A DNA stretch of 64,000 nt from Gammaproteobacteria bacterium (GCA_032250735.1 JAVVEP010000008.1:1775-65774); one strand, 5' to 3'; shown: positions 7,890 through 43,107, counted from the stretch's first letter. Numbers and translations are program-made. The notes: generated from the sequence alone by a model not told the origin.

Positions 7890-7921
7890 TGTTATTCTCC
7901 CTTCTCTATCCTGGCGAGCCG

Positions 7922-8340
7922 TCAATAGCCCAGGTTCGGCGCCAGCCAATACTCCGCGAACATGCGCGTCATGTCCTTGCGTTGCGCGTAGTCGTCGACC
8001 TGATCCTGGTTGATTTTGCCTACCGTGAAATAGGCGGCCTCGGGGTGCGAAAAATAGAAACCGCTGACGGCGGCGGTGGGCAACGAGGCCATGGCCTCGG
8101 CGAACCAGCTGCCGGTGCTTTCCTTCACCGCCATGAGATCCCACAGCAGGTTCTTTTCGGTGTGCTCGGGGCAGGCAGGATAACCGGGCGCGGGGCGAAT
8201 GCCCTGGTATTTCTCATAGATGAGATCGGTGTTGTCGAAGTACTCGTTCGGCGCGTAGCCCCAGATCTCCCTGCGCGCCTTCCGGTGCAAAAGTTCAGCG
8301 AAGCTCTCGGCGAAACCGCGAGGAAGTATAAACCCCCTGT
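7922..8340 (-). pseudogene. methionine synthase (metH) C-terminal fragment, ~139 codons, 5' truncated
   Basis: Translation ...HRKARREIWGYAPNEYFDNTDLIYEKYQGIRPAPGYPACPEHTEKNLLWDLMAVKE...VSGFYFSHPEAAYFTVGKINQDQVDDYAQRKDMTRMFAEYWLAPNLGY* is the conserved reactivation-domain C-terminus of B12-dependent MetH. Similarity stops abruptly near 8340, where lipoprotein-like sequence begins. Confidence 0.75.
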
Positions 8341-9835: not shown

Positions 9836-10738
9836 GTGAATACCGCCATCAAATGGCTGATTTACTTTGGCCTGCTGCTCACCACCGGCCTGCCGGCGAT
9901 CGCCCTGGCGGCAACGCCCGCTGCCAGCCCCCTGCCCCAGACCGCGGCCGTGCCCGGCGGTATCGTCACGCTGAATCTGGGCCCCGCCGAGGGCCCGGCG
10001 CCGGTGGTGCATTACCAGCAGCGGCGGGTGATGGTGGTGCAGGCCGACGGGCACTGGCAGGCGGTGGTCGGCATCCCCCTCACTGCCCGCAGTGGCCCGC
10101 AGAACCTCAGGCTGGCCGGTCGCAGCCAGACCGTGGAGTTTGAGGTCCAGGCCAAGGACTATGCCGAGCAGCGACTCACCATCAAAGACAAACGCAAGGT
10201 CAATCCCAACCCGGATGACCTGACCCGCATTCGTGGCGAACGGGGGCGCATTGTTAACGCGCTACGTCACTGGCAATTTCAGGATAGCGTGGACACCCGC
10301 TTCATCCTGCCGGTGACAGGCCGACTCAGCAGCCCCTTCGGCCTGCGGCGTTTTTTCAACGAGCAACCCCGCAAACCCCACAGCGGCATCGATATCGCCG
10401 CGCCGGAGGGCACGCCCATTGTCGCCCCCGCCGCCGGGCGCATCATCGAAACCGGGGACTTTTTCTTCAACGGCAACTCGGTGTTCATCGACCATGGCCA
10501 GGGGCTGGTGACGATGTACTGCCACATGAGTCGGGTGGAGGTGAAGGCCGGACAGCGGGTCGCGCGTGGCGAGGCCATCGGCGCCGTGGGCCAGACCGGT
10601 CGCGTCACCGGCCCGCACCTGCACTGGAGTGTCAGCCTCAACGATGCGCGGGTGGATCCGGGCCTGTTTTTCGAGGATCTCGAGACACTGCTCACGCCCG
10701 CCGCGGCCCCGCTGAGCGAGGCCCGCAGCGCCCCCTGA
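9836..10738 (+). CDS. M23 family metallopeptidase (LytM/NlpD-like), membrane anchored
   Basis: N-terminal TM segment; HSGIDIAAPEGTPIVAPAAGRI...GPHLHWSV are the HxxxD and HxH M23 motifs. Confidence 0.85.
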   Translation: MNTAIKWLIYFGLLLTTGLPAIALAATPAASPLPQTAAVPGGIVTLNLGPAEGPAPVVHYQQRRVMVVQADGHWQAVVGIPLTARSGPQNLRLAGRSQTVEFEVQAKDYAEQRLTIKDKRKVNPNPDDLTRIRGERGRIVNALRHWQFQDSVDTRFILPVTGRLSSPFGLRRFFNEQPRKPHSGIDIAAPEGTPIVAPAAGRIIETGDFFFNGNSVFIDHGQGLVTMYCHMSRVEVKAGQRVARGEAIGAVGQTGRVTGPHLHWSVSLNDARVDPGLFFEDLETLLTPAAAPLSEARSAP

Positions 10739-12041: not shown

Positions 12042-13148
12042 TTAGTCCTCCGCACCCATGGCCTTCGCCCGCGCCTGCCGCGCGGCATTTTCCGCCTCGT
12101 GTTGCGCGGCATTCCAGTCCGGCTCCGCTTCCGGCCAGCCCGCCAGGTGTTTTTGCACCAGGGCCGACAGGGCCTTGATGTGGTCCGGCCGGTCATTCAG
12201 CGCGGGAATGTAGTGAAACTGCTCGCCGCCGGCGTCGAGATAGGCGTGCTTGTTTTCCACCGTGATCTCTTCCAGGGTTTCCAGGCAGTCCGCCGAAAAC
12301 CCGGGGCAGATGATGTCCACCGATTTCACCCCGGCGGCGCCCAGCTCCCGCAGGGTCTCGATGGTGTAGGGCTGTAGCCACTCCTCACGACCAAAGATGG
12401 ACTGAAAGGTCAGCTGCCAGCGGTCAGCTGCCAGGCCCAGACGTTCGGCCACCAGCCGCGCGGTCTTCTGGCAATGGCAGTGATAGGGATCGCCTTCGGT
12501 GAGAAAACGCCGGGGGGTGCCGTGAAAGGAGAACAGCAATTTCTGCGGCGGCTCGCGTCCGCTCCAGGACTCCCGAATGCTGGCGGCCAGCGCCTCAATA
12601 TAACCGGTCTCATCGTGATATTGATTGACGAAGCGCAGCTCCGGCATCCAGCGCCAGTGGGCCATCTCCGCGGCAATGGCATCAAAGGTGGAGGCCGTGG
12701 TACTGCACGAATACTGCGGATACAGCGGCAGCACCAGGATGCGACGCGCACCGGCGTCGCGCAATTTTTGCATCGCCGAGGCCAGCGAAGGGTTGCCGTA
12801 ACGCATGCCCAGCTCCACCACCACCGGGCCGGGCAGACGCTGCGCCAGTTCGGTGCGCAGGGCCTCCAGCTGGCGTCGGGCGATCGCCAGCAGCGGCGAG
12901 CCGTCCTCGGTCCAGATACTGGCGTAGGCCCGGGCCGAACGCGCCGGCCGGATGCGCAGAATCACCCCGTGTAGAATCAGCCACCAAAGGGGGCGCGGCA
13001 GGTTGTCCACAATGCGCGGGTCCCACAGGAACTCCCCCAGATAACGACGCAAGGCCCCCGCAGTGGGGGCATCCGGCGTACCCAGATTGGTGATGAGCAC
13101 ACCGGTGGTCATCTGACTGTCGTGGCTAAAACGGGTGCTGGTCGACAT
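12042..13148 (-). CDS. hemH: ferrochelatase
   Basis: GVLITNLGTPDAPT...RYLGEFLWDPRIV...VLPLYPQYSCSTT...HGTP signature. The N-terminal 12 aa may be an extension; the alternative start is the Met of MTTGVL. Confidence 0.9.
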   Translation of the reverse strand: MSTSTRFSHDSQMTTGVLITNLGTPDAPTAGALRRYLGEFLWDPRIVDNLPRPLWWLILHGVILRIRPARSARAYASIWTEDGSPLLAIARRQLEALRTELAQRLPGPVVVELGMRYGNPSLASAMQKLRDAGARRILVLPLYPQYSCSTTASTFDAIAAEMAHWRWMPELRFVNQYHDETGYIEALAASIRESWSGREPPQKLLFSFHGTPRRFLTEGDPYHCHCQKTARLVAERLGLAADRWQLTFQSIFGREEWLQPYTIETLRELGAAGVKSVDIICPGFSADCLETLEEITVENKHAYLDAGGEQFHYIPALNDRPDHIKALSALVQKHLAGWPEAEPDWNAAQHEAENAARQARAKAMGAED

Positions 13149-13379
13149 GTTTTCCCCTGTTTTTTTTGTAATCCGGCTAGCTCATGCCTTCGCGTAGTGC
13201 GCGCGTGGCCGCCTGGTTCCACCGGCAGCCGGCTGCGACAAACTGCCGCAGCGCATAAGCAGCACATAAAAAGACCCGTAGTATAAACCGCTCACGGGGA
13301 ATTATCGTGCGATAATCACCACATGTTCTTACCCGCACCAAGCAATACATTTGCGCGCCCCAAGGCCTCGTACTGAGCA

Positions 13380-14030
13380 ATGAGCAAAACCCTGAAAGTG
13401 GCCCTCGGCCTGGGCTTCGCCATGTTGCTCATCGGCATCGCCATCAGCTTCACGCAACGAGGATCCGTTGCCACGGACAATGACGATGCGGTGCTAGCGG
13501 ATGCGCGTCTTGCCACACCCAGACCGCTGACCGCCTTTGCGCTGACGGCCCACGATTCAAGGCCGCTCGACCGGGAGCGGTTGCGGGGCCGATGGACGCT
13601 GCTGTTTTTCGGCTATACCCACTGCCCCGATGTCTGCCCGATCACCCTCAGCGAACTGGCGGGCATGGCCAGAACGCTGGAACCGACGCTACGGGACGAC
13701 ACCCAGTTTGTGTTTGTCTCGGTGGATCCACAACGGGACACACCCGAGTCACTGGGGGACTACGTCCGCTATTTTGACGAGCGCTTTTTAGGTGCAACGG
13801 GCAGCATCGAGGCGTTGACCTCACTCGCCCGGCAACTGGACTCCCGGTTCAGCCTGGAGACCGATCCCGCCGGTGAACCCGTCGTCAACCATTCCAGCGC
13901 CATGTTGTTGATCGACCCCCAGGTCCGGTATTATGCCCGCCTCAAGGCACCGCACTATGCCGAGCAGATTCGCACGCAGTATCTGGCCCTACGGGCGGAA
14001 TACCAACAGTTTCAATCCAGTCGCCCATAA
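13380..14030 (+). CDS. SCO1/SenC family copper chaperone (thioredoxin fold)
   Basis: N-terminal TM anchor; LLFFGYTHCPDVCP CxxxC copper-binding motif. Confidence 0.85.
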   Translation: MSKTLKVALGLGFAMLLIGIAISFTQRGSVATDNDDAVLADARLATPRPLTAFALTAHDSRPLDRERLRGRWTLLFFGYTHCPDVCPITLSELAGMARTLEPTLRDDTQFVFVSVDPQRDTPESLGDYVRYFDERFLGATGSIEALTSLARQLDSRFSLETDPAGEPVVNHSSAMLLIDPQVRYYARLKAPHYAEQIRTQYLALRAEYQQFQSSRP

Positions 14031-16012: not shown

Positions 16013-16369
16013 TCAGTGCACGCCTTCGCGGGTGCTGGATTCAGGGGTTGATGGGCGCTTGTACAACATAATTTCCTGCAAGGAGCGGAACACGCCGGTG
16101 TCAAAGTTACAAAACTTGAACCCGATACCGCCATCCGCAATACGCGTCACCCTGGCATGCACGTTGTGCCGGGTTCCCTGGTCCTGGGATAGCAGGCGAA
16201 ACACCAGATCAACATCCTCATCCTTGTGGAGGCTCAGCGGTTCGGCTGTCGACAGAAAGGTGCCGCCGAGGCCGATATCGGACGAATGGCAGGAGCCGAG
16301 CAGCGCGCCGTGCTGATAGACATCAACGTCAACGTCCAGCTCTTTTCGTTCACTCCAGCGCTTTTCCAT
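16013..16369 (-). CDS. PilZ-domain c-di-GMP binding protein (standalone)
   Basis: MEKRWSERKELDVD (RxxxR) ... DIGLGG (DxSxGG) canonical PilZ motifs. ATG 16369. Confidence 0.7.
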   Translation of the reverse strand: MEKRWSERKELDVDVDVYQHGALLGSCHSSDIGLGGTFLSTAEPLSLHKDEDVDLVFRLLSQDQGTRHNVHARVTRIADGGIGFKFCNFDTGVFRSLQEIMLYKRPSTPESSTREGVH

Positions 16370-16724
16370 ACACCCTCTCCACCCAATATTGACCCAAGAT
16401 AACACCGATAATGGTTCCCTCCAATACTTGACCCCGGTCCGGCTCGCGCTTGTTAACGGCGGTTAATCGCCTGTCTGCGTAAAATCCCTGCTACGCCCAT
16501 TCGACATCCACTTGCGTTTCAATACATTTCAACAGCAATTTACAGGCCAACCATGGCAGTGACTGCGAAATTGATCATAAAATCAGCAGCTTGCATTTGG
16601 AAACATGAGCCAAGCCAGCCATGATCGATACCAAAGACCCGCACCTGTAAAGTTCTTCGACAAACCCCTGGTCCGTATTGCTCACCACTCTTCTGCTGCG
16701 ACGAACGGTGGCGAGCAATGCGGG

Positions 16725-17729
16725 CTAGCTCCGCCCGTAGTCAAATGACAGCACCTCTCGCACATGCTGCCCTCCACCCAGCACCATCAGCAACCGATCC
16801 AGGCCCAGTGCAACGCCTGCACAGGCGGGTAGCCCGGCCTCCAGGGCCCCCAATAAACGCTCATCGATCACCATTGGTTCCTGCCCCTCGGCTCGCCGCT
16901 GTGCCAGATCCGCCTCAAACCGGGCCCGCTGTTCAGCGGCGTCCTGCAGCTCATGAAAGCCATTGGCCAGCTCAATGCCATCGATAAACAATTCAAAGCG
17001 TTCGGCAACGGCGGGGGTACCGGGCCGCACCCGGGCCAGGGCCGCCTGGCTCTCAGGATAATCGTAGATAAAACACAGATGGCCGCGCCCCAGCTGGGGC
17101 TGAACACAGAAACTCATCAGCAGGTCCAGCCAGCCATCGCGGTCGTCATCGGCCAATCCGGCCACCCCCGGCAGTCCGGCCTGCGCGGCACCATCCCGCA
17201 ATTGCGCCATCGTGGCCGTGTGGGGATCCAGCCCCAGCTGCTGCTGAAAACAGTCGTGATAGCTCAGATACTGTACCGGGCCGAATTCACGCAGTCCCTC
17301 GGCCAGCTGACTGACCAGGGTGTCCACCTCCTGCATCAGCTGGTGATGATCAAAACCCGGCCGGTACCATTCCAGCAGGCTAAATTCGGGGTTGTGATGC
17401 CGGCCCTGTTCGCCCGCGCGAAATGCCTTGCAGACCTGAAAAATAGGGCCCGCACCAGCCGCCAGCAGGCGCTTCATGGCAAATTCGGGTGAGGTGTTCA
17501 GGTAACGGCGGGGGGGCACAGCAGCCTGCCCCGTTGACGCGGCGCTGTCGGAAAGGCTGAAACTGGGGATGTGGGGGTCGGTCGCCCCGGCGCTGACCAA
17601 CAGGGGGGTCTCGACCTCCAGCACGCCCTGCGCCGCAAAATAGCGGCGCAGGGCGGCCAGCAATTCGGCCCGCTGGCGCAGGCTCGCCAGGCTCGCCGTG
17701 GGCCGCCAGTCGGCGCTGTGTTCTGCCAT
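16725..17729 (-). CDS. epmA: EF-P lysine beta-lysyltransferase (PoxA/GenX)
   Basis: Class II LysRS-like catalytic core (LEVETP...FRAGEQGRHHNPEFSLLEWY...). Located directly downstream of efp. Confidence 0.85.
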   Translation of the reverse strand: MAEHSADWRPTASLASLRQRAELLAALRRYFAAQGVLEVETPLLVSAGATDPHIPSFSLSDSAASTGQAAVPPRRYLNTSPEFAMKRLLAAGAGPIFQVCKAFRAGEQGRHHNPEFSLLEWYRPGFDHHQLMQEVDTLVSQLAEGLREFGPVQYLSYHDCFQQQLGLDPHTATMAQLRDGAAQAGLPGVAGLADDDRDGWLDLLMSFCVQPQLGRGHLCFIYDYPESQAALARVRPGTPAVAERFELFIDGIELANGFHELQDAAEQRARFEADLAQRRAEGQEPMVIDERLLGALEAGLPACAGVALGLDRLLMVLGGGQHVREVLSFDYGRS

Positions 17730-17748
17730 GGCGACGGCCGGCAGGCTC

Positions 17749-18318
17749 CTAGCCCTTCACCCGGCCCACATATTCGCCATTACGGGTATCGACCTTGATC
17801 ATCTCGCCGGTCTCGACAAACAGGGGCACGCGCACCACCGCACCGGTCTCCAGGGTGGCGGGCTTGATGCCCCCCTGCGCGGTATCGCCCTTCAGGCCGG
17901 GATCGGTCTCGGTGATGCGCAACTCGACAAAATTGGGGGTCGCCACGGCGATGGGGCGATCATTCCAGGTGGTGACTTCGCACATATCCTGCTCTTTCAG
18001 CCATTTGTTCTCATCACCCACGGCGGCGGCATCGGCGGCCACCTGCTCGAAGCTGTTGGGGTCCATGAAATACCAGAACTCACCATCGTTGTAGAGATAC
18101 TGCATGGTGGTATCCATCACATCCGCGCCCGGCAGCGATTCACCGGATTTGTAGGTGCGTTCCAGCACGCGCCCGGTAATCAGGTTGCGCATCTTCACGC
18201 GTGTGAAGGCCTGCCCCTTGCCTGGCTTGACCATGTCCACCTCGATCATGGAACAGGGATCATCGTCCACCATCACCTTCAGGCCATTCTTAAATTCGTT
18301 GGTTGAGTAATTAGCCAT
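17749..18318 (-). CDS. efp: elongation factor P
   Basis: [14 protein letters not shown]...[17 protein letters not shown] (acceptor Lys loop KPGKG). 189 codons. ORF-track start 18411 is an upstream extension. Confidence 0.9.
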
Positions 18319-18391
18319 TTCTACCTCGATCTGGGAACATTCTTTCTTTTTGTCTGTTTGTCTGTTGACACTCACACGCGAGAGCCGCCGT

Positions 18392-19462
18392 ATGATACCG
18401 CTTACCGCCAACCTTTGTCAGTCACCCGCCCCTGAAACGGGTGAAATCGCGCCCGATAGCCTTTGGCAACAGGAGCTCGCACAGGCCATCAAATGCCCCG
18501 CCGAGCTGCTCGCCAGGCTAGGGCTCAGCGCCGACGCGATCCCCGCCGGGATTGATCTGGACCAGCCCTTTCCGCTGCGGGTGCCCCGTGGCTATGTGGC
18601 CCGCATGCGGCCGGGGGATCCGCACGATCCCCTGCTGCTGCAGGTTTTACCCCGCCAGCTGGAGGCGGCGCTTCAGCCCGCCTTTCTTCGCGACCCCGTC
18701 GGCGACGCGGCGGCGGTGGCCAGCCCCGGCCTGCTGCACAAATACCATGGCCGGGTGTTGCTGATCACCACCGGCGCCTGTCCCATCCATTGTCGCTACT
18801 GTTTCCGGCGCCATTTTCCCTATGCCGATAATCGGCCGGATGATCGCCATTGGCAGGCCGCCATCGATTACATTGCGCGCCATCCGGACATCAACGAGGT
18901 CATTCTCAGCGGCGGCGACCCGCTGTCCCTGAGCACCCGGCGACTGGCCGACATCAGCACGGCGCTGCGCGATATCCCGCACCTACGGCGGCTACGCATC
19001 CACACCCGCATGCCCATCGTGCTGCCCTCACGAATTGATGACGCGTTTTTGCGGTGGCTGGCCGACCTGCCCTGGCAGACGGTGCTGGTCACCCACTGCA
19101 ATCACGCCAATGAGTTGGGCGACGAGGTGCAATGCGCCCTCGGCAAGATACGCCAGCTCGGCGTCACCCTGCTGAATCAGTCGGTGCTGCTGAGGGCGGT
19201 GAACGACCAGGTCGACCGGCTCTGCGCCCTCAGCGAGGCCCTGTTTGCCTGCGGTGTACTGCCCTATTATTTGCACCTGCTGGACCGGGTGCAGGGTGCC
19301 GCCCATTTTGAGGTCGATGAACCCACCGCCCAGCAGCTGATTGACGGCGTGCGCCGGCGCCTGCCGGGATTCCTGGTGCCGCAGTTAGTGCGCGAAACGG
19401 CGGGCGAACCCTATAAGGTGCCCCTGTATTTATGCCCCGGCGGGGTCACCGAAATAACCTGA
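18392..19462 (+). CDS. epmB: EF-P beta-lysylation lysine 2,3-aminomutase (radical SAM)
   Basis: [11 protein letters not shown] radical-SAM CxxxCxxC. Divergent from efp. Confidence 0.9.
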
Positions 19463-19662
19463 AACAAATCGCCTAAGACACTGAGCCACAACTAAAGTAC
19501 AGTCCGCAATGGCCGCAATGTATTCCGAGAACCGCCGTTTAAAGAGCCGATATCCACATTGGCTCCCGCACGATGGTGTTTTAACGGCGGCATCGTATAC
19601 TCTCGGCCGATATTTATGGCCGGTTTCAGAACATCAACACGTATCATGATTTAGGAGCAGAT

Positions 19663-21534
19663 GTGGCTAGCAACATGCCCGAGGGATTACTCAATATCCC
19701 GGAACAATCCAGGCCCACCGCAGATTCCTTCGAGACGCGCCCCAAACAGGTCGAGGCCTGGATTGCGGCGCTGCCGATGGCGAATACGGGCGAGAGCGCT
19801 CGCCGTATCTATAGCGCCCTGCGTGAAATGAATCGGCTGGTCGTCTCCCCGCAGGATCGTTACAGGACCATGGAGCTGTTACGCGGCCCGGTTCACCAGA
19901 TCACCGAGGTGCTGAAAAAACATTACATCAATCAAAATCTGCCGCTGTCGCCCAAAAATCAGAAAATTGCGGAACTGGCCATCCAGCTCAATTCCGAAAT
20001 GGCCCTGGCCTACAAGATCGTCATCCACGACAAACTGGAGAAAACCTTTTCAAGTCTGAGCAGCAAAACGCTCGCCATGTGCCTGCACCGCGCCATCCGA
20101 TATCTCAGCGACGTCCTGCTCTGCGCCTATAAGATTTATATCCAGCACCCGGAAAATGTCTGGCTGCAGATACACCGCCTGTATCTGTACGCCGAGAGCC
20201 ACAACCTGCACACCCAGCTGATAAAGGATCATGTCGCACCGGAGGTGTTCCGCGACGGCACGATTGCGGATATCTACAAACAGATACTCCTGCTGGCTCT
20301 GGCCGGCCCCTACCGACTCCGTCAGCATGTCACCGAGGCGGTGTACGTTGCGCTGGAAGACTGGGTTTCCACTGCCCGCATATTGCCCTATGGGGAAATA
20401 CAGGACGACACCTACGCCTTCACCATCGGCATGAACACTGACGCCGCACCCGGTTATTTCCGGGATGACGGCACGATCAACCCCGCCTTTTGCCGCACCA
20501 TTGACACCAGCGAACTCGCTCAGAAAGTAACCCAGGCCTTACTGTCTGCAGACAGCCTGTCACAGAAAATACCCGAGGATGTCTTAAAGCGATTATTAAT
20601 GACCTGGAGCGGAAAATCGCATCGCACCTTTCCCCGCACATCAAAAAATAATGAAATTGCGATCACCATGGGGCTGAGCGCAACCCACCATTACATTGAT
20701 GAAATCATTCGCCCGTTATTAAAAGACCCGACAGCCACCTGCCCCTCAGCAACCGACGCCTTGCAGTCCGGACAGTCCATTACCACGGTAACGGATGGAG
20801 AGGAAGACTTCGTGTTAGGCGAACGCGCCCGCTACACCAGCACCCCCGTATTCGGCATCAGCAACCTGGATGACCATACCCCGGATGTCTGGGATCCCGA
20901 CTTCACCTATCGGGTCAATAATCCAATCTATGCCTTCAACAACACGGATACCATTTTACTGAACACCGAGGACAAATCCTCGCTATATGCCTACACCCCC
21001 CTGCCCTGCAAAGGCATCAACGAAAGCGCGGGTGGATATTGCCTACTGGGCTATCTGGTTTATGGAAAAGATTCGCAAAAGGTCCAGGTCGGCGAATTGG
21101 TAGGCATTCGTGACAACCTGGAATCGAACAGCACGCAACTCAGCATCGGGATTATCCGGCGCATCAAAAACTGGAAAAATGGCCTGGAACTTGGCATTCA
21201 GAAGCTTGCGCCCTGCGCAGATGCCATTGCCCTGTCGCCCGTTCCAAAAGGTAATGAAAGCGAGAAATATCAGCGTAGCCTGGTGTTGCCAAAATTATCC
21301 GCCATCGATCAGCCGGCCACCTTGATCACCTACGCCTGGCAACAGACTAACGACAAACTGATCGCCAATGTACACGGCCATCGCACCACCATACAATTGA
21401 CTAAACAATTAGAGAGCACCGGTGTATTCTCACAATTTGAATTCACCGTGCTCGAGAACCAGCAAGACAACAAGAAAAATACTCTGGCAACAGAAACCGG
21501 CGACCAGTTCAACGATGTGTGGAAGCTCATCTGA
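19663..21534 (+). CDS. large hypothetical protein, paralog of 24760..26670, C-terminal PilZ-like NESAGG motif
   Basis: 623 aa. N-terminal region alignable by eye with the other paralog (…R..Y..LRE…ME…I…Y…LP…A..I…MAYK). Lower GC than backbone. Confidence 0.6.
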   Translation: MASNMPEGLLNIPEQSRPTADSFETRPKQVEAWIAALPMANTGESARRIYSALREMNRLVVSPQDRYRTMELLRGPVHQITEVLKKHYINQNLPLSPKNQKIAELAIQLNSEMALAYKIVIHDKLEKTFSSLSSKTLAMCLHRAIRYLSDVLLCAYKIYIQHPENVWLQIHRLYLYAESHNLHTQLIKDHVAPEVFRDGTIADIYKQILLLALAGPYRLRQHVTEAVYVALEDWVSTARILPYGEIQDDTYAFTIGMNTDAAPGYFRDDGTINPAFCRTIDTSELAQKVTQALLSADSLSQKIPEDVLKRLLMTWSGKSHRTFPRTSKNNEIAITMGLSATHHYIDEIIRPLLKDPTATCPSATDALQSGQSITTVTDGEEDFVLGERARYTSTPVFGISNLDDHTPDVWDPDFTYRVNNPIYAFNNTDTILLNTEDKSSLYAYTPLPCKGINESAGGYCLLGYLVYGKDSQKVQVGELVGIRDNLESNSTQLSIGIIRRIKNWKNGLELGIQKLAPCADAIALSPVPKGNESEKYQRSLVLPKLSAIDQPATLITYAWQQTNDKLIANVHGHRTTIQLTKQLESTGVFSQFEFTVLENQQDNKKNTLATETGDQFNDVWKLI

Positions 21535-21575
21535 GGGTCTCCACACAGCCACTACATTATTTTTAGGAGCAGCTA

Positions 21576-23651
21576 TTGGATAACGGGAATGTCATCCGTC
21601 CACTCATTCTGGAAGACTCGGCAAACGAGGCCGAGGCTCTGGCAAGCGCCCTGCGCAACGTAGGCTATGCGGTGCGTTACAAGCACATTGAGGACGCAGA
21701 GGACCTGCAGGAGGCCTTGGAAGCCCAAAGCTGGGATATATTGTTAGCCGCGCAACAGGTCGGCGATTTTACCGCCACCCAGGCCCTGTCCATCATCAAG
21801 CAAAGCGGCAAGGACGTTCCCTGCGTCATCATGGGCAACGAACACGCCGACACTCTCATTACCGAGGCAATGCGCGCCGGTGCTGCCGACTTCGTCTCCA
21901 GCGAGACGCAGGACCACCTGCTGCTCGTTATCGAAAGGGAAATCGCCAATCTGCGCGAACGTCGCGCACATCGCCATTGCAGAGGCCTCTATAACGAAAG
22001 CGAGAAGCGTAACCGTGTGCTACTTGACAGCTCACGCGACCCCATCGCCTACATTCATGAGGGCATGCATATCTATGCCAACCAGAGTTATCAGGAAATC
22101 TTTGGTTATCCCGAGATCGAGGAACTTGAAAGTGTGCCGATCCTGGATCTGATCGCCAGTGATGACCAGCAGAGCTTCAAGGAGGTGCTGCGCAGCATCA
22201 ATAACGACCAGCCCCCGGAAGAGACCATCGAATACCGGGCCGTGCGTGAAGATGGCGAGGTGTTTATCGCCACCATGGGATTCTCCCGCGCCAGCATCGA
22301 TGGCGAATCCTGCACCCAGGTGATGATTCACCGCAAGAACGATAACAAGGCGCTGGAAAACGAGATTCAGCAGTTGCGCCAGCAGGATTTGCTGACCGGC
22401 CTGTACAATCACCAATATTTTATGGAGCAGGTTCAGGCCGCGGTCAACCTCGCCCACCAGAGCGAGGAAAGATGTGCGCTTTTGTATATCGAGCCTGACA
22501 ACTTCAAGGGCATAAAAGACACCCTGGGCATCGCGGAGAGCGACCTTGTATTGACTGACATCGCCGCATTCATTCGTGAAAAAATGCCGGAAGATGCCGT
22601 GATTGCCCGCTATGCCGGCACCATTTTTTCTGTCCTGCTCTGCGGCCCATCCTACAAAAAGGCCGAACAACTCGCCAACAGCATCTGTGCCGGTCTGGCG
22701 GAGAAGATATTCGAGGTCGAAGGAAAGACAGTCACCACCAGCTGTAGCGTGGGCATTTCGACCATCTCCGAAACCACCCCGGACGCCAAAAAGGCCATCG
22801 CGCAAACCGAACTGGCGGCCCAGTCTGCCAAACAGAGCAATGGCAACCAGGTGCATACCTTCACCGTGGAAGATGAGCTCGCCACCCAGGAAGCGGATAA
22901 GCGCGTCATCACGCTGATAAACCTGGCACTCAAGGACAATCGTTTCACCCTGCAGTATCAGCCCATTGTCAGCCTGCACGCCGAACCCGGCGAACGCTAT
23001 GAGGTGTTACTGCGGCTGCTGGACCATGACAACACCCTCATCATGCCTGCCGACTTCATTCCCATCGCCAAACAGGCAGGGATGATGGTGGAAATTGACA
23101 AGTGGGTCATCAAGAGTGCCGCCCGGGCAATGCTGGATAAACGCAAAGTGGGCAAGGAGATCCAGTTCTTTATCAAACTGTCCTCTGACTCCCTGCGCGA
23201 GCCCAGCCTGCTGGTGTGGGTCAGCAAACTATTGCAGGCCGCGCGGCTGCATGGCGACAGTCTGGTATTTGAAGTCAGCGAGCAGGACGTACAGGAAAAC
23301 CTCAAGGCCGCCAAAACCTTTTCGGACGGTCTCAAGCAACTGCACTGCAATCTGGCCATTGACCATGCCGGAAAGGACTCTAGCGACCTGGGCTACATGA
23401 AGCACCTGAACCTGCGTTATCTCAAGATCGATGGCAGCCATATCACCAATGTCACCAGCGAAGAAAGCCAGGAGGTTATCAAGACCATTGCGGAAGTGGC
23501 GCGCAGCAAAAACGTACTGACCATTGCAGAACACGTGCAAGACCCCGCCTGCCTCGCGGTGCTGTGGCAACACGGGGTCAACTTCATTCAGGGACATTAC
23601 CTGCAACACCCTGAAGGCAACCTGAACTATGATTTTTCCAGCAATGAATAG
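21576..23651 (+). CDS. FimX-like REC-PAS-GGDEF-EAL protein with degenerate GGDEF (AGTIF) and EVL-type EAL
   Basis: 691 aa, TTG start. REC N-terminus, PAS, RYAGTIF in place of GGDEF, EAL domain YQPIVSL...ERYEVLLR with IDHAGKDSS in place of DDFGTG. Architecture and degeneracy mirror P. aeruginosa FimX. Confidence 0.8.
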   Translation: MDNGNVIRPLILEDSANEAEALASALRNVGYAVRYKHIEDAEDLQEALEAQSWDILLAAQQVGDFTATQALSIIKQSGKDVPCVIMGNEHADTLITEAMRAGAADFVSSETQDHLLLVIEREIANLRERRAHRHCRGLYNESEKRNRVLLDSSRDPIAYIHEGMHIYANQSYQEIFGYPEIEELESVPILDLIASDDQQSFKEVLRSINNDQPPEETIEYRAVREDGEVFIATMGFSRASIDGESCTQVMIHRKNDNKALENEIQQLRQQDLLTGLYNHQYFMEQVQAAVNLAHQSEERCALLYIEPDNFKGIKDTLGIAESDLVLTDIAAFIREKMPEDAVIARYAGTIFSVLLCGPSYKKAEQLANSICAGLAEKIFEVEGKTVTTSCSVGISTISETTPDAKKAIAQTELAAQSAKQSNGNQVHTFTVEDELATQEADKRVITLINLALKDNRFTLQYQPIVSLHAEPGERYEVLLRLLDHDNTLIMPADFIPIAKQAGMMVEIDKWVIKSAARAMLDKRKVGKEIQFFIKLSSDSLREPSLLVWVSKLLQAARLHGDSLVFEVSEQDVQENLKAAKTFSDGLKQLHCNLAIDHAGKDSSDLGYMKHLNLRYLKIDGSHITNVTSEESQEVIKTIAEVARSKNVLTIAEHVQDPACLAVLWQHGVNFIQGHYLQHPEGNLNYDFSSNE

Positions 23652-23710
23652 GGCGGGATTATAGAGATAGGAACCGCAGGCCAACCGCTATAACCAGCCG
23701 CTATAAACAA

Positions 23711-23746
23711 AGGCGCCAACTCGATGAGCTGGCGCCTTTTTTGATA
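23711..23746. terminator. bidirectional intrinsic terminator
   Basis: aaaggcgccaactcgatgagctggcgccttttttga between convergent fimX-like and htpX. Confidence 0.75.
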
Positions 23747-23813
23747 TTCAGGAAACGATTTTCAGCGGCCTGTTTTCAGTGACCAGAGCAGTGCAGGCCT
23801 GCCTGCCTGCCGC

Positions 23814-24698
23814 TTATAGCTGGTTGCGTAACGCCGCAATGCGCTCTTCCAGAGGCGGGTGCGACATAAACAGACGGCTCAGTCCACGACCCACACCACC
23901 GGAGATACCGAAGGCCGCCAGCTGATCGGGAAGATGCGGCTGATTCACACCCTGGCGCAACTTTTCCAGCGCGGCGATCATTTTCTGCGGACTGCTTAAT
24001 TGCGCACTGCCGGCATCTGCGCGGAATTCCCGCTTGCGGCTGAACCACATCACGATAATGCTGGCCAGGATGCCCAGCACCATCTGCGCCACAATGGTGG
24101 TGATCCAGAATGCCGGACCATGACCACGCTCGGACTTGAACACCACCCGATCCACCAGGTGGCCAATCACCCGTGACAGGAAAATCACAAAGGTGTTAAC
24201 AACGCCCTGTATCAGCGCCAGCGTGATCATGTCGCCATTGGCCACATGGCTGACCTCATGCGCCAGCACTGCCTCCGCCTCATCCTCGCTCATGGCATTT
24301 AACAGCCCGGTACTCACGGCCACCAGGGCATTGTTGCGGGACATGCCCGTGGCAAAGGCATTGACGTCGGCGGCGTCATAGATCGCCACTTCCGGCATGC
24401 CGATACCGGCCGCCCGCGCCTGACGGGCCACCGTCTCCACCAGCCAGCGTTCCCGCGCATTGGCCGCCTGGGTAATGACCCGCGCGCCCGTGAAACGTTT
24501 GGCCGTCCATTTTGAAATGGCCAGCGACAACAGCGAACCGCCAAAGCCGAAGATAGCGGAAAACACCAGCAGGTTGTTGATATCCAGGCCAACCCCCTGC
24601 TCGTCCAGGATGCGGTCAACACCAAACAGGTGCAGGACGATACTCAGCACAAAAACAATCGCCAGGTTGGTGGCAAGGAACAAAAAAATGCGCTTCAT
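23814..24698 (-). CDS. htpX: zinc metalloprotease HtpX (M48)
   Basis: TM N-terminus; [12 protein letters not shown]xxH. Confidence 0.9.
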
Positions 24699-24759
24699 AA
24701 TGAAGACTCCAGGGTATCAGTTTATTGACAGCGTATTAGTGGGATTCATCCGGAGGATT

Positions 24760-26670
24760 TCAAGTGGGCGACCCCACAGAGAGAGACTCGCCAGCGTGGC
24801 CATGGTTCAGTCGATAGATCACGAATTCGCGCTGCAACTGCACCAGTTCGGCGATTTCGGTGGCCTGCCGGTTTTCACCCGATTCGACCTGAATCGCGGT
24901 CCCCGGCGACAGTCGATGACTGTGGTGCAAAATCAGCTGCGAGGTCTTGCCATCGGCATGTCCGGCATCGGCTCGCTTTTCCACGCGACTGTGCAGCAGG
25001 ATCGCCGGCAGGGCCATATCGTTTTTGCTGAGAAAGTCGCTCTGCACCGCGGTAGCCTCCGCTTGGTGGGAGAGGATACGAATCGTGACCTCGATCTCCT
25101 TATTGAGCTTGCGATGCAGACGCACCACATAACCCAGTGTCGGCTTTTTCAGTGCCTCGCGCGAAAACCCAAAAGCCACCAGCTGACCGATGAACAGCGC
25201 GGTAGTGAACTGGGATTCCCGCGTCTTCATATGCACGCCGCCGGCACTCTTGTCCATCACAAACCACTGACCGAATTCACTCGCCTCAAGGTCCGACGCA
25301 ATCAGGGCTGAACGGCCGGCCAGGGCATCACGCAGATCATGTCCCTCTACTGGCACATCAGTGGCTTCAATCTCCTGCGCGGCCATATCCACCAGCAACT
25401 TGTAGACCGACATGAAACCGTTATACACATACAGTATTTTCTGACCGATGGTGTATTCGCGCGGTTGTTTGCGCTGCTTCAACTGCATGCCGTCACACAT
25501 GGCATCGATCGTCAGCAGGTTGGTTAAATCATCCTGATCCGTGACCTTGCCGCTGGCTTTTTCATCGTCCTCAACGACGGTGGACGCCTCCAGACGTTTC
25601 AACAGCTTCTGGTGTTCCGCCAGCAACACTGCATCCAGCGGCGAGACATCGACAATAATCGCCCGCAGGTCCCCGGTCGTTAAGGCGGCTGCCGCTGCCT
25701 CTCCCCCATGCTCCGCCAGCCCTTTCTGTTGCAGCGCAAGATAACGGGCATCCTGACGTTTAAAATAGGCGGGACAGTCCTGGCCGAAATAGATGAGTAT
25801 TTTACCGCGGGCCAGTTGCTTTCCATGATCGGGAATAATCGTAATCGAGTCGACCACGCGGGCGATCTGCGCGTCCACTACATGCAGTTTTTGCGAGGAG
25901 ATCGTATTGCTGTCCAGCAGGCCGTTAATCTGGATCGAGAGATAGACAATGTTCATCGACACCATGGTCGGCACGCGTCGCTCCAGCGCATTGGCCTTTC
26001 TATCCAGCGTCAGCTGCAGGCAATCCAGGGCCTGGTACTGGGCGTCCATGTCTTCGCACTGCGACACGGCGAAAAATATCCGGTTACAGTCCCGCCATGC
26101 CCTGGCCGGCAGCTTCTGATAGCGCATGGCGCGCAGGCGCTGTTCCATGCGGATCAATTCCAGCACCCGCAGGGCCTGTTGCCGGACCCGCTCCCGCACG
26201 CGGACATAACGCGCGTCGGACAGGGCAAAATCCAGATTCAACTGACGCTTGTAGGCCATCCCCAATTGGCCACACACATTAATCGCCGCCACCAGGCCTT
26301 CACGCCGGTCGTGCGGTTCCGGCAGGGCCTCGGTTTTATAATATTCCGAATAGATTTTGCGGATCGCCGGGCAGGCATACTGCATCACAGACTCCACCCA
26401 TTGCCGACGTTTGCTGTCGGCGACACGTTCGTTATTGATACGCTGCAAATAACGGTCAATTTCGCGCAGCAACTCGATGGGGTGGTCATTCAACTCACGC
26501 CAGCTGTCCGGCGGAGCGTCCAGTTTATCCGTCTGCGAAAGCAGGCGTCGGCGACTGGCGCGCAACACAGGTACCTCTAACTTTAATTCGATCGTACGAG
26601 GCGCAACGGTTTCCCCCTTGCTTTCCGCAAGCGACAGCCAGCTGCGCCATTGGGACCAGTCATACGTCAT
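24760..26670 (-). CDS. large hypothetical protein, paralog of 19663..21534, C-terminal PilZ-like DKSAGG motif
   Basis: 636 aa. ...RDALAGRSALIASDLEASEFGQWFVMDKSAGGVHMK... aligns with the NESAGG region of the paralog. Starts 10 nt downstream of the parC stop. Confidence 0.6.
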   Translation of the reverse strand: MTYDWSQWRSWLSLAESKGETVAPRTIELKLEVPVLRASRRRLLSQTDKLDAPPDSWRELNDHPIELLREIDRYLQRINNERVADSKRRQWVESVMQYACPAIRKIYSEYYKTEALPEPHDRREGLVAAINVCGQLGMAYKRQLNLDFALSDARYVRVRERVRQQALRVLELIRMEQRLRAMRYQKLPARAWRDCNRIFFAVSQCEDMDAQYQALDCLQLTLDRKANALERRVPTMVSMNIVYLSIQINGLLDSNTISSQKLHVVDAQIARVVDSITIIPDHGKQLARGKILIYFGQDCPAYFKRQDARYLALQQKGLAEHGGEAAAAALTTGDLRAIIVDVSPLDAVLLAEHQKLLKRLEASTVVEDDEKASGKVTDQDDLTNLLTIDAMCDGMQLKQRKQPREYTIGQKILYVYNGFMSVYKLLVDMAAQEIEATDVPVEGHDLRDALAGRSALIASDLEASEFGQWFVMDKSAGGVHMKTRESQFTTALFIGQLVAFGFSREALKKPTLGYVVRLHRKLNKEIEVTIRILSHQAEATAVQSDFLSKNDMALPAILLHSRVEKRADAGHADGKTSQLILHHSHRLSPGTAIQVESGENRQATEIAELVQLQREFVIYRLNHGHAGESLSVGSPT

Positions 26671-26680
26671 TCACTAAGTC

Positions 26681-28972
26681 TCATTCACCGGTTGACGTTG
26701 CATCAGTCACCGCATTGGCCGCAAGGTTGGCCGACAAACCATCCACGCGCTGGAACCCCCGCGGCAGTTTCGCGCCGCGCCGGCCACGCTCCCCGGCATA
26801 ATGTTCAAGATCTTTCGGCTTGAGGGTCAGATGACGCTTGCCGGAATGAATCGTCAGACTGCCGCCGAGCGGCACCACGGCCATGCCCACCACAAACTCC
26901 TCGCGCGTCGCCACCTTGGCCGGCGGGATGCCGATAATCCTGTTGCCTTTACCCTTGGCCATCTCCGGCAGTTCCTGCAAGGGGATCATCAACATGCGCC
27001 CCTCGGTGGTCACCGCCACAATACGATCCGTCGCGACATCGGTCACCGCGCCGGCCGGCAAGACCCGCGCCCCCTTGGGCAGGTTCAGCAGCGCCTTGCC
27101 CGACTTGTTTTTCGCGTACATATTTTCCAGCTGGGTGACAAAGCCATAACCGGCATCGCTGGCCAGCAGATAACGGTCACTGCCCTTGCCGGCCAATACA
27201 TCGACAAAACCTGCCGCATCCGGTGGGGTGACGCGCCCTGTCAACGGTTCACCCTGGCCGCGCGCCGATGGCAGTGTGTGCGCGGCTATGGAATACGAAC
27301 GCCCGCTGGCATCGAGGAACACCACCAGCTGATTACTGCGCCCGCAGGCCGCGGCCCTGAAGTCGTCGCCGGACTTGTAGTTCAGCGCTCGGCCATCCAC
27401 ATCGTGGCCCTTGGCGGCACGTATCCAGCCCTTCTCCGACAGCACCACGGTGACCGGTTCCGCGCTGATCAAGGCGGTCTCGTCCAGCGCCTGCGCCGCC
27501 TCACGCGCAACGATGGGCGAACGCCGCTCGTCGCCGTACTCCTCTGCATCGGCGATCAGCTCCTTGCGCACCAGGGTTTTCAGTCGTGCACTGGAGCCCA
27601 GGGTCTTTTCCAGTTGGTCACGTTCCGCCGCCAGCTCTTCCTGCTCGGCGCGAATCTTCATCTCTTCCAGCCGCGCCAGCTGCCGCAACTTGGTATCGAG
27701 GATATATTCCGCCTGCTCCTCGCTGAGCTTGAAGCGCTTGATCAGCACCGGCTTAGGTTCGTCCTCGCTGCGGACGATACGGATCACCTCGTCCAGATTG
27801 AGGAAGGCGATTAGCAAGCCATCCAGCAGGTGGAGCCGACGAATGACCTTCTCCAGGCGGTATTCCAGACGACGACGCACCGTGTCGGTACGGAACACCA
27901 GCCATTCCTTCAGCAGCGTGCGCAGGTCCTTCACCTGCGGCCGACCGTCCAGGCCGATGACGTTCATGTTGACGCGATAGGTCCGTTCAAGATCCGTGGT
28001 GGCGAACAGATGCGCCATCAGCTCATCCAGATCGATGCGGTTGGAACGCGGCACGATCACCAGCCGGGTGGGATTTTCGTGATCGGACTCGTCACGCAGG
28101 TCTTCCACCATCGGCAGCTTCTTGGCGTTCATCTGCGCCGCAATCTGTTCCAGCACCCGGTTGCCCGACACCTGATGCGGCAGTGCCGTCACCACCACCG
28201 CGCCATCCTCCTTGATCCACACCGCCCGCATACGCACCGATCCGCCGCCCTTCTCGTACATGGCCTGCAACTCGCTGCGCGGAGTGATGATCTCCGCCTC
28301 GGTCGGATAATCCGGTCCCTGCACATGCTCACACAGTTCCGCCAGCGAGGCCTTGGGTTCATCCAGTAGATGCACGCAGGCGCTCACCACCTCGCGCAGA
28401 TTGTGCGGCGGGATATCCGTCGCCATACCCACAGCGATGCCAGTAGTCCCGTTCAACAACAGATTCGGCACCCGCGCCGGCAACATCGCCGGCTCTTCCA
28501 GGGTAGCGTCAAAATTCGGCACCCAGTCCACCGTACCCTGCCCCACTTCACTGAGCAGCAGATCCGCATAGCGGGCCAGACGTGACTCCGTGTAACGCAT
28601 CGCCGCGAAAGACTTGGGATCATCCTGCGCACCCCAGTTACCCTGACCGTCCACCAGCGGGTAACGGTAGGAGAACGGCTGCGCCATCAACACCATCGCC
28701 TCGTAACAGGCCGAGTCGCCGTGCGGGTGGAACTTGCCCAGCACGTCACCCACGGTACGCGCGGATTTTTTATACTTCGCCCCCGCCTTCAGACCCAGCT
28801 CGGACATGGCATAAATGATGCGCCGCTGCACCGGCTTCAGGCCGTCGCCGATGTGCGGCAGGGCGCGATCCAGGATCACGTACATGGAGTAGTTGAGGTA
28901 GGCGTTCTCAGTGAAGATGCTGAGGGGTTGTTGTTCGACGCCTTCGTAGTTTAGTTCTGTTGTTTCTGTCAT
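26681..28972 (-). CDS. parC: DNA topoisomerase IV subunit A
   Basis: 763 aa. [12 protein letters not shown]...HPHGDSA...MRYTE active-site Tyr region. Length fits ParC rather than GyrA. Confidence 0.9.
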
Positions 28973-29061
28973 TGTTTGATCTTTCGTTGGAAGCGGCAGG
29001 CAAATTCATTCTGCCCCGATAATTTTTTGATTTTCTTTCGATTCATTTAAAAAACAAACAA

Positions 29062-29448
29062 TCAAATTTTTCTGATGCTTTCTCTCACCCAGGGATGCAA
29101 GTGTTCTAAATCACAGGTATTAGAATCAAACAAACCCATCAAGAATCGGTGGGCGGCCTTTGCTTCAAGCTGAAATTTATATCCATTCATGCGGAGAAAT
29201 ACATCCGTCGCAAAAAAAGCGACTCGTTTGTTTCCATCAACAAAGGGATGATTCTTAATGAGAGACTCAAACATGGCCGCCGCCATTTCAACCAGGTCTT
29301 CATAGTAACCCGTTTGTGGTCGGTACAACGCGCTTTCAAGCAAGCCAAAATCACGCACCCCTGGCGGGCCGCCGAATCTTTCAATCAACACCACATGGAT
29401 TTCAACCACCTCATCCACGGATAAAAACTGAACAGACTTACTTGGCAA
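29062..29448 (-). CDS. Doc/Fic-family toxin
   Basis: HPFVDGNKR Fic motif. AT-rich cassette. Confidence 0.8.
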   Translation of the reverse strand: MPSKSVQFLSVDEVVEIHVVLIERFGGPPGVRDFGLLESALYRPQTGYYEDLVEMAAAMFESLIKNHPFVDGNKRVAFFATDVFLRMNGYKFQLEAKAAHRFLMGLFDSNTCDLEHLHPWVRESIRKI

Positions 29449-29650
29449 GAAGTTTACCTAATTCTTCATTTTCACGAATAGAATTATTGAGATGTGATTT
29501 AACAACCGGACGAACACGGCGACGACGAAGGTATTCGCTAATCGCCTCTGTCAGAAGACCCGAGACATTCTGATGGGATTCCCTGGCAACCGCCTTTAGC
29601 TCATCCCATACGGCCTCTTCGACTTTTGAACTGATTTTAATAGAAGGCAT
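29438..29650 (-). CDS. cognate antitoxin (Phd/RHH-like), overlaps toxin start
   Basis: 70 aa, overlaps doc by 11 nt. Basic C-terminus LRRRRVRPVV. Confidence 0.6.
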   Translation of the reverse strand: MPSIKISSKVEEAVWDELKAVARESHQNVSGLLTEAISEYLRRRRVRPVVKSHLNNSIRENEELGKLLAK

Positions 29651-29775
29651 CACGCAATCCTAGATACAGAGTATTGACATGTCAAGATATCAGAAATAAT
29701 CACTTTATAAACAGTCTGTTACACAAAACCAATAAAGGAAGCCTTGGGAGATGTAAGAGCTTCGATTTCTTTAGT

Positions 29776-29862
29776 TGAGCCAGGCGTTCTCCGTGAAGAT
29801 GCTGAGGACTTGTTGTTCGACGCCTTCGTAGTTTAGCTCTGTTGTTTCCGTCATTGCTCTGC
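29776..29862. repeat. ~87-bp duplicate of the parC 5' end (start codon plus first ~25 codons and RBS)
   Basis: gccaggcgttctccgtgaagatgctgaggacttgttgttcgacgccttcgtagtttagctctgttgtttccgtcat versus 28886-28972 at ~92% identity. Flanks the TA cassette as a direct repeat. Confidence 0.85.
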
Positions 29863-29865
29863 TTT

Positions 29866-29951
29866 TTGTAGGGTGGGCATTGCCCACCATTGCACAACAC
29901 CAATCATTACCTTATTGGTGGGCTATGCCCACCCTACAAAAACAGGTGCTT
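29866..29951. repeat. REP palindromes (inverted pair) upstream flank of RAYT
   Basis: gtagggtgggcattgcccacc ... ggtgggctatgcccaccctac. Confidence 0.7.
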
Positions 29952-30497
29952 TTACTCGCCAAATCCTTCATTCGGCGCATTGAACTCGCCACCCCAATTC
30001 TCGCTGTAAATGCCTTCTTTAACATACTGATGAAACGTGGAATGTGGCCATGCATTTACCTGCTCCACCAATCCATGTTTTACGGGGTTGAAATGGATGT
30101 AATCCGCGCGGCGTTGAAAATCTACCTCATCCCTGATGAGGTGCTCCCAAAACCGACGTTGCCAAATGGTGCTTTCTCTGTGCCGTTGCTTTGATGTATT
30201 CATCTCAGCATCACAATGAAAAAGCGGCTTTGCCTGTTTCGTAAATCCCGCCTTTATCATTCCCCATCGTTTTGAATAATTCGCATCACCTTCTGGCAAC
30301 GTCCACATGCAATGTAAATGGTCCGGTAACAAAACCCAGGCATCAACACTAAACGGATGTTGTTGCCTTACTTCATCAATCACCCGTCGCAATATCTGCC
30401 GGCTTTCTGGCTTGTCCAATATTGATTGACGCCGATGGGTTACTACGGTGAAAAAATACGTTGCACCTTTTACTATTGATCGACGGTAGTTTGGCAT
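29952..30497 (-). mobile_element. REP-associated tyrosine transposase (RAYT, IS200/IS605 Y1 HUH family)
   Basis: VLLPDHLHCMW HuH motif plus downstream catalytic Tyr region. Flanked on both sides by REP palindromes. Confidence 0.85.
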
Positions 30498-41990: not shown

Positions 41991-42067
41991 GGCCACGCCT
42001 GCCTGCTGCCCTACCCATCCCCTATCGCCTGCCACTGACGGCACTGCCGTCGTTATCGATCGCCACT

Positions 42068-42976: not shown

Positions 42977-43107
42977 TATAATCGCCTCCCCTTTTTGTAA
43001 TCGTTTTTTGTTATCGCTTTTTATTATCAAGAATGCGGAAGCAGGATCGGCCCGTGGGCCGTTCATGCCCCCACCGACAAACCCAAGGCCAGGCCAAGAC
43101 AAACCCG

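Follow-up and report, generated by a model that had tools for sequence, protein, structure and literature searches.

A putative fimW-fimX pair and a second, strongly diverged FimW paralog in a gammaproteobacterial c-di-GMP neighbourhood

The window analysed here is a stretch of 64,000 nucleotides from a Gammaproteobacteria bacterium (GCA_032250735.1 JAVVEP010000008.1:1775-65774), of which the region 16013-26670 was treated. As judged from sequence comparison, this region very probably carries a fimW-fimX pair orthologous to PA4958-PA4959 of Pseudomonas aeruginosa, together with a second, strongly diverged paralog of FimW. PA4958 is FimW, a cyclic diguanylate (c-di-GMP) receptor; its gene accompanies fimX, and cells depend on it for normal surface piliation (PMC11656802, PMC10335732, PMC10212136, PMC6581867). 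It accumulates at the cell poles on surface contact in a c-di-GMP-dependent manner, and its mode of action is unknown (PMC11656802, PMC10335732, PMC10212136, PMC6581867, PMC12564702). Its c-di-GMP binding, polar localisation and role in pilus assembly come from experiments in P. aeruginosa (PMC11656802, PMC10212136); it was described in 2019 by Laventie et al. (as cited in PMC11656802 and PMC10212136). The original prediction, made from the sequence of the window, had found a real and coherent c-di-GMP neighbourhood here and had guessed its function well: it proposed large c-di-GMP effectors with a PilZ-like signature, partnered with FimX and perhaps acting on type IV pili, in agreement with the FimW literature (PMC11656802, PMC10212136, PMC12564702). 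It had left these effectors without a family, but the name FimW (PA4958) has existed since 2019. Overall, its observations were partly confirmed and its interpretation was partly supported, and the ORF listing (ORF, open reading frame) contains every gene at the coordinates it had given.

Loci for comparison were drawn from two sources. A FimW-family profile scan of 185,579 species genomes gave 250 confirmed loci; the 80 that were kept (L001-L080) belong to close lineages only, with no Pseudomonas among them. Another 80 metagenome loci (L081-L160) were fetched with P. aeruginosa FimX, the query being read from the 4j40 structure alignment and then scanned against metagenome contigs. The P. aeruginosa loci L081, L082 and L085 were recovered at 100% identity to the 4j40 FimX sequence. 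A 607-amino-acid (607-aa) ORF of L081 (3336-5159) lies directly upstream of fimX, after psd, and this position between psd (PA4957) and fimX (PA4959) identifies it as PA4958.

The 623-aa protein of the window (19663-21534, plus strand, GTG start) is, by sequence, a full-length FimW ortholog: BLASTP aligns its residues 1-621 with residues 1-605 of PA4958 at 27% identity and an expectation value (E) of 1e-65. A gap of 41 bp separates it from fimX on the same strand, and the order fimW then fimX is found in P. aeruginosa as well. Two JGI records of close relatives carry the label "cyclic-di-GMP-binding protein". An exhaustive profile search found thousands of clusters (50% identity), namely 4893 at E<=1e-3 and 2273 at E<=1e-30, so FimW is a large and widespread family. 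Almost all of its members turned out to be unnamed in the cluster look-ups, and the family profile, compared with all PDB sequences, met no solved structure of any FimW member.

An AlphaFold2 model of the 623-aa protein (pLDDT, predicted local distance difference test, 76.9; pTM, predicted template modelling score, 0.78) suggests the following layout. An N-terminal helical domain (~27-237) would be followed by an alpha/beta region (~239-352) with an RxxxR motif and strand beta1, a low-confidence insertion (~375-443), a beta-barrel (~447-526) with an NxSxxG motif, a second beta domain (~536-596) and a conserved C-terminal tail with the invariant W620. Inside the low-confidence insertion, residues 389-413 form a conserved stretch, YTSTPVFGISNLDDHTPDVWDPD, with an invariant W410. 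The tail itself, residues 612-623, reads EFDxVWxLI, and its counterpart in PA4958 is DFDSLWKSL. On sequence grounds, the W410 stretch and the W620 tail look like short docking motifs.

Directly downstream, the 691-aa protein (21576-23651, plus strand) shows a REC-PAS-GGDEF-EAL architecture by Pfam, and its sequence identifies it as FimX, a degenerate, receptor-type GGDEF-EAL protein as the original prediction had proposed. Its five best solved-structure matches are all FimX (4j40 at E=1e-86, 3hv8, 3hv9, 4afy and 7lkq, down to 1.8e-53); the first non-FimX match is PA0861 at 5.9e-52, and the others are at 1e-40 or weaker. Over 687 residues it shares 38% identity with the FimX (PA4959) of L081 (E=7e-165), and both proteins are 691 aa long. 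The degenerate motifs AGTIF and EVL, already pointed out in the original prediction, are present and align with GDSIF and EVL of P. aeruginosa FimX. In place of the DDFGTG metal site, the window protein has DHAGKD and the P. aeruginosa protein SQFGCS; since the GGDEF and EAL signatures are altered and this site is lost, the protein would act as a receptor. The REC domain is degenerate too, with an Ala at what is presumably, going by the CheY fold, the position of the phospho-acceptor Asp.

The order epmA-efp-epmB-fimW-fimX is kept across L001-L080, down to ~31% FimW identity (tblastn), with fimW followed by fimX as in the window. Moreover, psd, fimW, fimX and parC share one neighbourhood both in these lineages and in P. 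aeruginosa (L081). Because the four genes stay together in both, the syntenic block they form is an old one, with insertions that differ between lineages. What directly precedes fimW differs: in L001-L080 it is the elongation factor P (EF-P) modification module, in L081, where this module is absent, it is psd. In the Thiogranum metagenome-assembled genome L034, a 187-aa ORF (9839-10402) is inserted between fimW and fimX.

The second large protein, of 636 aa (24760-26670, minus strand), is identified through its sequence as a full-length, collinear homolog of FimW, a distant paralog. A pairwise alignment of the two large proteins, which the original prediction had proposed as a check, shows no significant similarity (BLASTP best E=2.2), and neither does BLASTP against PA4958 (best E=3.7). 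The relationship appears at the profile level. A first hhalign comparison, with profiles of 26 and 25 sequences, gave a probability of 72% (E=3.5e-5) over 486 collinear columns. When the FimW profile was broadened to 220 sequences, among them PA4958 and representatives of the 50% clusters, the match to the paralog family rose to 98.3% (E=1.5e-14) over 508 columns, pairing residues 10-598 with 31-625; the reciprocal run gave 98.4%, and a column-reversed control E=0.44 over 48 columns. In an hmmsearch with the broad FimW hidden Markov model (HMM), each 636-type ORF of the fetched loci likewise reaches 35-77 bits. Furthermore, the precomputed Pfam annotation places PF27104 on both families, and PF27125 on the FimW family alone; a literature search returned no paper mentioning PF27104, PF27125 or "FimW-like". 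The paralogy is thus drawn from three independent lines, the shared Pfam family, the profile comparison and hmmsearch. The similarity described in the original prediction as N-terminal is real at the profile level, but it extends over the whole length and escapes pairwise BLASTP.

The AlphaFold2 model of the paralog (pLDDT 80.7, pTM 0.83) shows the same element order as that of FimW: a helical N-terminal half, a small alpha/beta region, a low-confidence insertion, a six-stranded beta region and a second beta domain. In its N-terminal part, the paralog has a set of invariant residues of its own (P117, E118, R122, E124, E171, Q177, R183 and Y184), and both candidate docking motifs of FimW are absent from it, the W410 stretch as well as the C-terminal tail with the invariant W620. 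It is evolving faster than FimW: in L026, L043 and L068 its identity to the window protein is 24-26%, against 32-37% for FimW, ~50% for FimX and 64-70% for ParC.

The paralog family is a small one. Whether 5.8 billion proteins were searched with a single sequence or with a profile, the same set of ~100 clusters came back, all unnamed and from metagenome-assembled gammaproteobacteria; the paralog is confined to a small set of marine, sulfur-type lineages of this class. It occurs in 18 of the 160 fetched loci. In each of them its gene lies on the minus strand, with fimX (or htpX) on one side and parC on the other, and wherever the flank is available the locus also has a bona fide fimW-fimX pair. 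It is missing from all of L081-L160, the 80 loci retrieved with P. aeruginosa FimX. More distant relatives have other genes in its place; L034, for instance, has a 407-aa ORF (12740-13963) there, between fimX and htpX. In the window, 10 bp separate the parC stop from the start of the paralog, and 61 bp its end from htpX; the three genes are probably transcribed together, convergently to fimX. A scan for consensus promoters and terminators did no better than chance or shuffled sequence. The two large proteins had been said to flank FimX; in a functional sense this holds only for fimW, which is adjacent and co-oriented, but the paralog lies on the other strand, behind htpX and after parC.

Both large proteins carry the two c-di-GMP-binding motifs of PilZ domains. 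In FimW, RxxxR is RTFPR (20623-20637, plus strand; R321 and R325) and [D/N]xSxxG is NESAGG (21019-21036, plus strand; N453, S455 and G458); PA4958 has ERTFQRT and VNHSPGG. In the paralog, the motifs are RKQPR (25459-25473, minus strand; R400 and R404) and DKSAGG (25237-25254, minus strand; D473, S475 and G478), and hhalign pairs R400/R404 with R321/R325 and D473/S475/G478 with N453/S455/G458. The xSAGG signature noted in the original prediction is therefore present in both translations. RxxxR had been described as atypical or absent; instead, both of its Arg residues are invariant in each family (75/75 members), 69-128 residues upstream of [D/N]xSxxG. The second motif is nearly as constant. 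In the FimW family, the first position is N in 74/75 members and D in the remaining one, and S455 and G458 are found in 75/75; in the paralog family, D473 is kept in 72/75 (N in 3), S475 in 70/75 and G478 in 71/75.

The distance between the two motifs is what sets these proteins apart. It amounts to 128 residues in the FimW of the window, 107 in PA4958 and 69 in the paralog, compared with ~25 in an ordinary PilZ domain (the small PilZ protein of the window, MotI). As in PilZ, a strand begins within ~7 residues after RxxxR in both large families. The segment between the motifs is mostly of low confidence in both models, and six strands follow it (447-526 in FimW, 469-544 in the paralog) with the second motif on the first hairpin, formed in FimW by strands 447-455 and 460-466. 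According to sequence and models, FimW and its paralog likely contain a PilZ module interrupted by a partly disordered insertion, and the gap of 69-128 residues explains why the Pfam PilZ model misses both families. Neither Pfam nor NCBIfam matches the intact 623-aa and 636-aa proteins. When the window proteins and PA4958 were cut down to C-terminal constructs or spliced, Pfam gave no match either.

Among the relatives, PilZ emerges below the threshold. It matches 4 of 75 intact FimW proteins (best E=0.0039) and 7 of 75 intact paralogs (best E=0.014), and it is the most frequent family in the intact-protein Pfam lists of both. After removal of the insertion, sub-threshold matches to PilZ rise to 19/38 for FimW (best 1.8e-5) and 8/22 for the paralog (best 1.8e-4), and no other family recurs. 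Full-length family profiles retrieved nothing relevant from all PDB sequences. The spliced FimW profile meets the PilZ domains of MotI and Alg44 at E=0.6-1.7, which is not significant, with both motifs in register. Foldseek searches of the PDB list PilZ proteins among the best hits, BcsA and MotI for the FimW model and VCA0042 (prob 0.87), PP4397 (0.96) and MrkH for the paralog model, at probabilities of 0.35-0.96 for these whole-protein queries, all with E>=0.03 and low TM-scores.

With the motifs and models at hand, three other readings have to be considered. The similarity of the two large proteins could be an artefact of composition or short motifs, the 636-aa protein belonging to an unrelated family. 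BLASTP is indeed empty for this protein against both the 623-aa protein and PA4958, and the first, shallow profile comparison reached only 72%; the deeper profile, though, aligns 508 collinear columns where the reversed control aligns 48, and hmmsearch, the predicted order of secondary structure and the common precomputed Pfam family all agree with it, so that an artefact is extremely improbable. Nearly as improbable is that both proteins are flagellar brakes of the YcgR/FlgZ type (PilZN plus PilZ) and not pilus regulators. This would suit the two-domain PilZ proteins VCA0042, PP4397 and MotI found among the best Foldseek hits. Yet none of 150 family members has a Pfam YcgR or PilZN match at E<=1, the large proteins are ~400 residues longer with a helical N-terminal half, and the models place the extra beta domain after, not before, the PilZ-like barrel. 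Besides, the phenotype published for FimW, of which the 623-aa protein is clearly an ortholog, is one of pili (PMC11656802).

More serious, if still unlikely, is the proposal that the 636-aa protein is a FimW-derived scaffold that has lost c-di-GMP sensing and whose role, an unrelated one, would be tied to its operon partners parC (chromosome decatenation) and htpX (membrane protein quality control). Its gene stands apart from fimW-fimX and on the other strand, beginning 10 bp behind parC, a position kept in 18/18 loci; it evolves faster than FimW at comparable distances (24-26% vs. 32-37% identity); and it has neither the Trp tail nor the N-terminal Pfam family PF27125. What disfavours a loss of sensing is the state of the motifs: RxxxR does not vary, and 70-72 of 75 members retain DxSxxG, in spite of an overall identity down to 25%, a conservation that is hard to explain without ligand binding. 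Furthermore, gene adjacency alone is no proof of a functional link to parC.

The preferred reading of the region, a fimW-fimX pair with a diverged second FimW, suggests the following scheme, taken by analogy from P. aeruginosa. A rise in c-di-GMP, for example on surface contact, would be sensed by FimW through binding; the c-di-GMP-bound FimW would self-associate, gather at the cell poles and promote type IV pilus assembly. FimX would bind c-di-GMP through its catalytically dead EAL domain and act on the extension ATPase PilB. The paralog would be a second c-di-GMP receptor with the same binding module and a different output. From its conserved residues, we consider it somewhat more probable than otherwise that the paralog binds c-di-GMP, while a pilus-related role for it is possible but rather doubtful. 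Its output probably differs from that of FimW, because its conserved N-terminal residues are different, the Trp tail is lost and the gene is probably co-transcribed with parC and htpX.

Several observations weigh against this scheme or its parts. The large proteins of the window stay below the Pfam PilZ threshold, whether intact or with the insertion removed. No Foldseek match has E<0.03 and the TM-scores are low, the queries being whole multi-domain models, and an hhalign comparison of the small PilZ profile with both large families gave E=0.35-0.57, a value that is uninformative given how narrow this profile is (20 orthologs). The 64-kb window contains no pilus structural genes, and the pilus link for this organism consequently comes from orthology alone. 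In this organism, c-di-GMP binding, polar localisation and an effect on pili are predictions, and the co-transcription of the paralog with parC and htpX is based only on the gaps of 10 and 61 bp.

The fimW-fimX pair is already known, since FimW, whose gene accompanies fimX, has been published as a c-di-GMP effector acting on type IV pili, and by itself it adds little; what is new is the lineage-restricted, highly diverged FimW paralog. Still, the pair means that the surface-sensing pilus module of Pseudomonas reaches uncultured marine gammaproteobacteria of the sulfur type with conserved gene order. The interrupted-PilZ reading of the FimW ligand site is put forward here, and it may already stand in Laventie 2019; it accounts for standard domain searches missing FimW and supplies precise residues to mutate. 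The paralog means that a few lineages hold a second, fast-evolving FimW, with the binding residues kept, the tail lost and the gene in what is probably another operon. It is a speculative and rather unlikely extension that this paralog represents a lineage-restricted second class of FimW-type receptors, in which the interrupted PilZ module was kept and the output rewired. Such a receptor might be an antagonist of FimW at the pole or a partner of different affinity; another possibility is that it links the c-di-GMP signal to the parC/htpX operon, and so to chromosome segregation or envelope quality control.

The genes around the pair complete the picture. The region is preceded by psd (~14.6-15.5 kb, plus strand, from the ORF listing), and the EF-P modification module follows the small PilZ gene, with epmA (16725-17729, minus strand), efp (17749-18318, minus strand) and epmB (18350-19462, plus strand). 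The three names are presumptive and come from sequence resemblance and established knowledge. In this lineage the module is conserved as the neighbour upstream of fimW, and it lies outside the c-di-GMP system. On the other side, htpX (23814-24698, minus strand), encoding an M48 membrane protease, was correctly named before (Pfam Peptidase_M48, E=1.4e-38); it is convergent with fimX and closes a minus-strand run of parC, the FimW paralog and htpX. The parC gene itself (26681-28972, minus strand; topoisomerase IV subunit A) was named after its ORF from sequence resemblance and synteny with the P. aeruginosa parC region. Its identity to the neighbours in the closest loci is 85-90%, and it always adjoins the paralog, of which it is the conserved upstream neighbour.

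A stand-alone PilZ-domain protein of 118 aa is encoded at 16013-16369 (minus strand; Pfam PilZ E=5.6e-9, with 36.7 bits where the cut-off is 22.5). It had been called canonical; it has an RxxxR motif (RWSER), but its second motif is D-I-G-L-G-G, with Gly for Ser in 20/20 orthologs, so near-canonical is the better term. Across the orthologs (L001-L033), this motif reads [DN]-[IV]-G-L-G-G, and it is only in the lineages closest to the window that psd and epmA have this gene between them. A comparison with solved structures gave no relative, PilZ or other, at E<=1, and nothing identifies the protein with the PilB/FimX-binding PilZ of Xanthomonas and Pseudomonas.

The lower guanine-cytosine (GC) content reported for fimX and the upstream large gene is real (0.553 and 0.533 for fimX and fimW; 0.572 for the paralog), but the difference is small. 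The mean of the window genes is 0.597 with a standard deviation (SD) of 0.046; the dip lies within ~1.4 SD, and several unrelated genes of the window are equally low. Horizontal transfer as an explanation was rejected: since the dip is normal variation and the gene order is common to 80 related genomes, it is no sign of recent acquisition.

Elsewhere in the window, a low-GC patch lies beyond parC at 29062-30497 (GC 0.435 over 29001-30000). It holds a Doc/Fic-family toxin gene (29062-29448, minus strand; Pfam Fic E=1.1e-16), a 71-aa ORF overlapping the toxin start (29438-29653, minus strand), probably the antitoxin, and an IS200-like Y1 transposase (29952-30497, minus strand; Y1_Tnp E=2.3e-6, GC 0.458). 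The patch has the look of a small mobile insertion that separates parC from the next large gene. Directly after a HAMP-PAS histidine kinase (37727-40351, plus strand) comes a REC-GGDEF protein (40403-41557, plus strand; GGDEF E=8e-46), and the two likely form a two-component diguanylate cyclase ~14 kb from the FimW/FimX genes; parE (35582-37471, minus strand) lies beside them. A protein with a methyl-accepting chemotaxis protein (MCP) domain is encoded at 46770-47996 (minus strand). Pfam matches neither of two sizeable ORFs at E<=1e-5, one at 6705-8144 (minus strand, 479 aa) and the other at 42053-43126 (minus strand, 357 aa), and Rfam finds no RNA family anywhere in the window.

Compared with known systems, the window FimX resembles those of P. 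aeruginosa and X. citri in its REC-PAS-GGDEF-EAL architecture, its length of 691 aa, its degenerate GGDEF domain, the EVL motif and the loss of the DDFGTG site. It differs from P. aeruginosa FimX in sequence (38% identity) and in the GGDEF remnant, which is AGTIF instead of GDSIF; a PilZ protein of the Xanthomonas PilB/FimX-binding type was not identified near it. The 623-aa protein is close to P. aeruginosa FimW in size (623 vs. 607 aa), in having fimX directly downstream on the same strand, and in the RxxxR, NxSxxG and C-terminal Trp motifs. It shares only 27% identity with it, and epmA-efp-epmB replaces psd upstream. Canonical PilZ domains (PF07238; Alg44, MotI/DgrA, YcgR, PlzD/VCA0042) have, like both large proteins, RxxxR before a strand and [D/N]xSxxG on a hairpin; in the large proteins, in contrast, the domain sits inside ~620 aa, which also comprise a large helical N-terminal half and, towards the C-terminus, one more beta domain. 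The 636-aa protein, finally, has the fold order and both binding motifs in common with FimW at the profile level. It differs from FimW in being undetectable by pairwise comparison, in its shorter insertion and missing Trp tail, and in its location on the opposite strand beyond htpX, whereas fimW adjoins fimX on the same strand.

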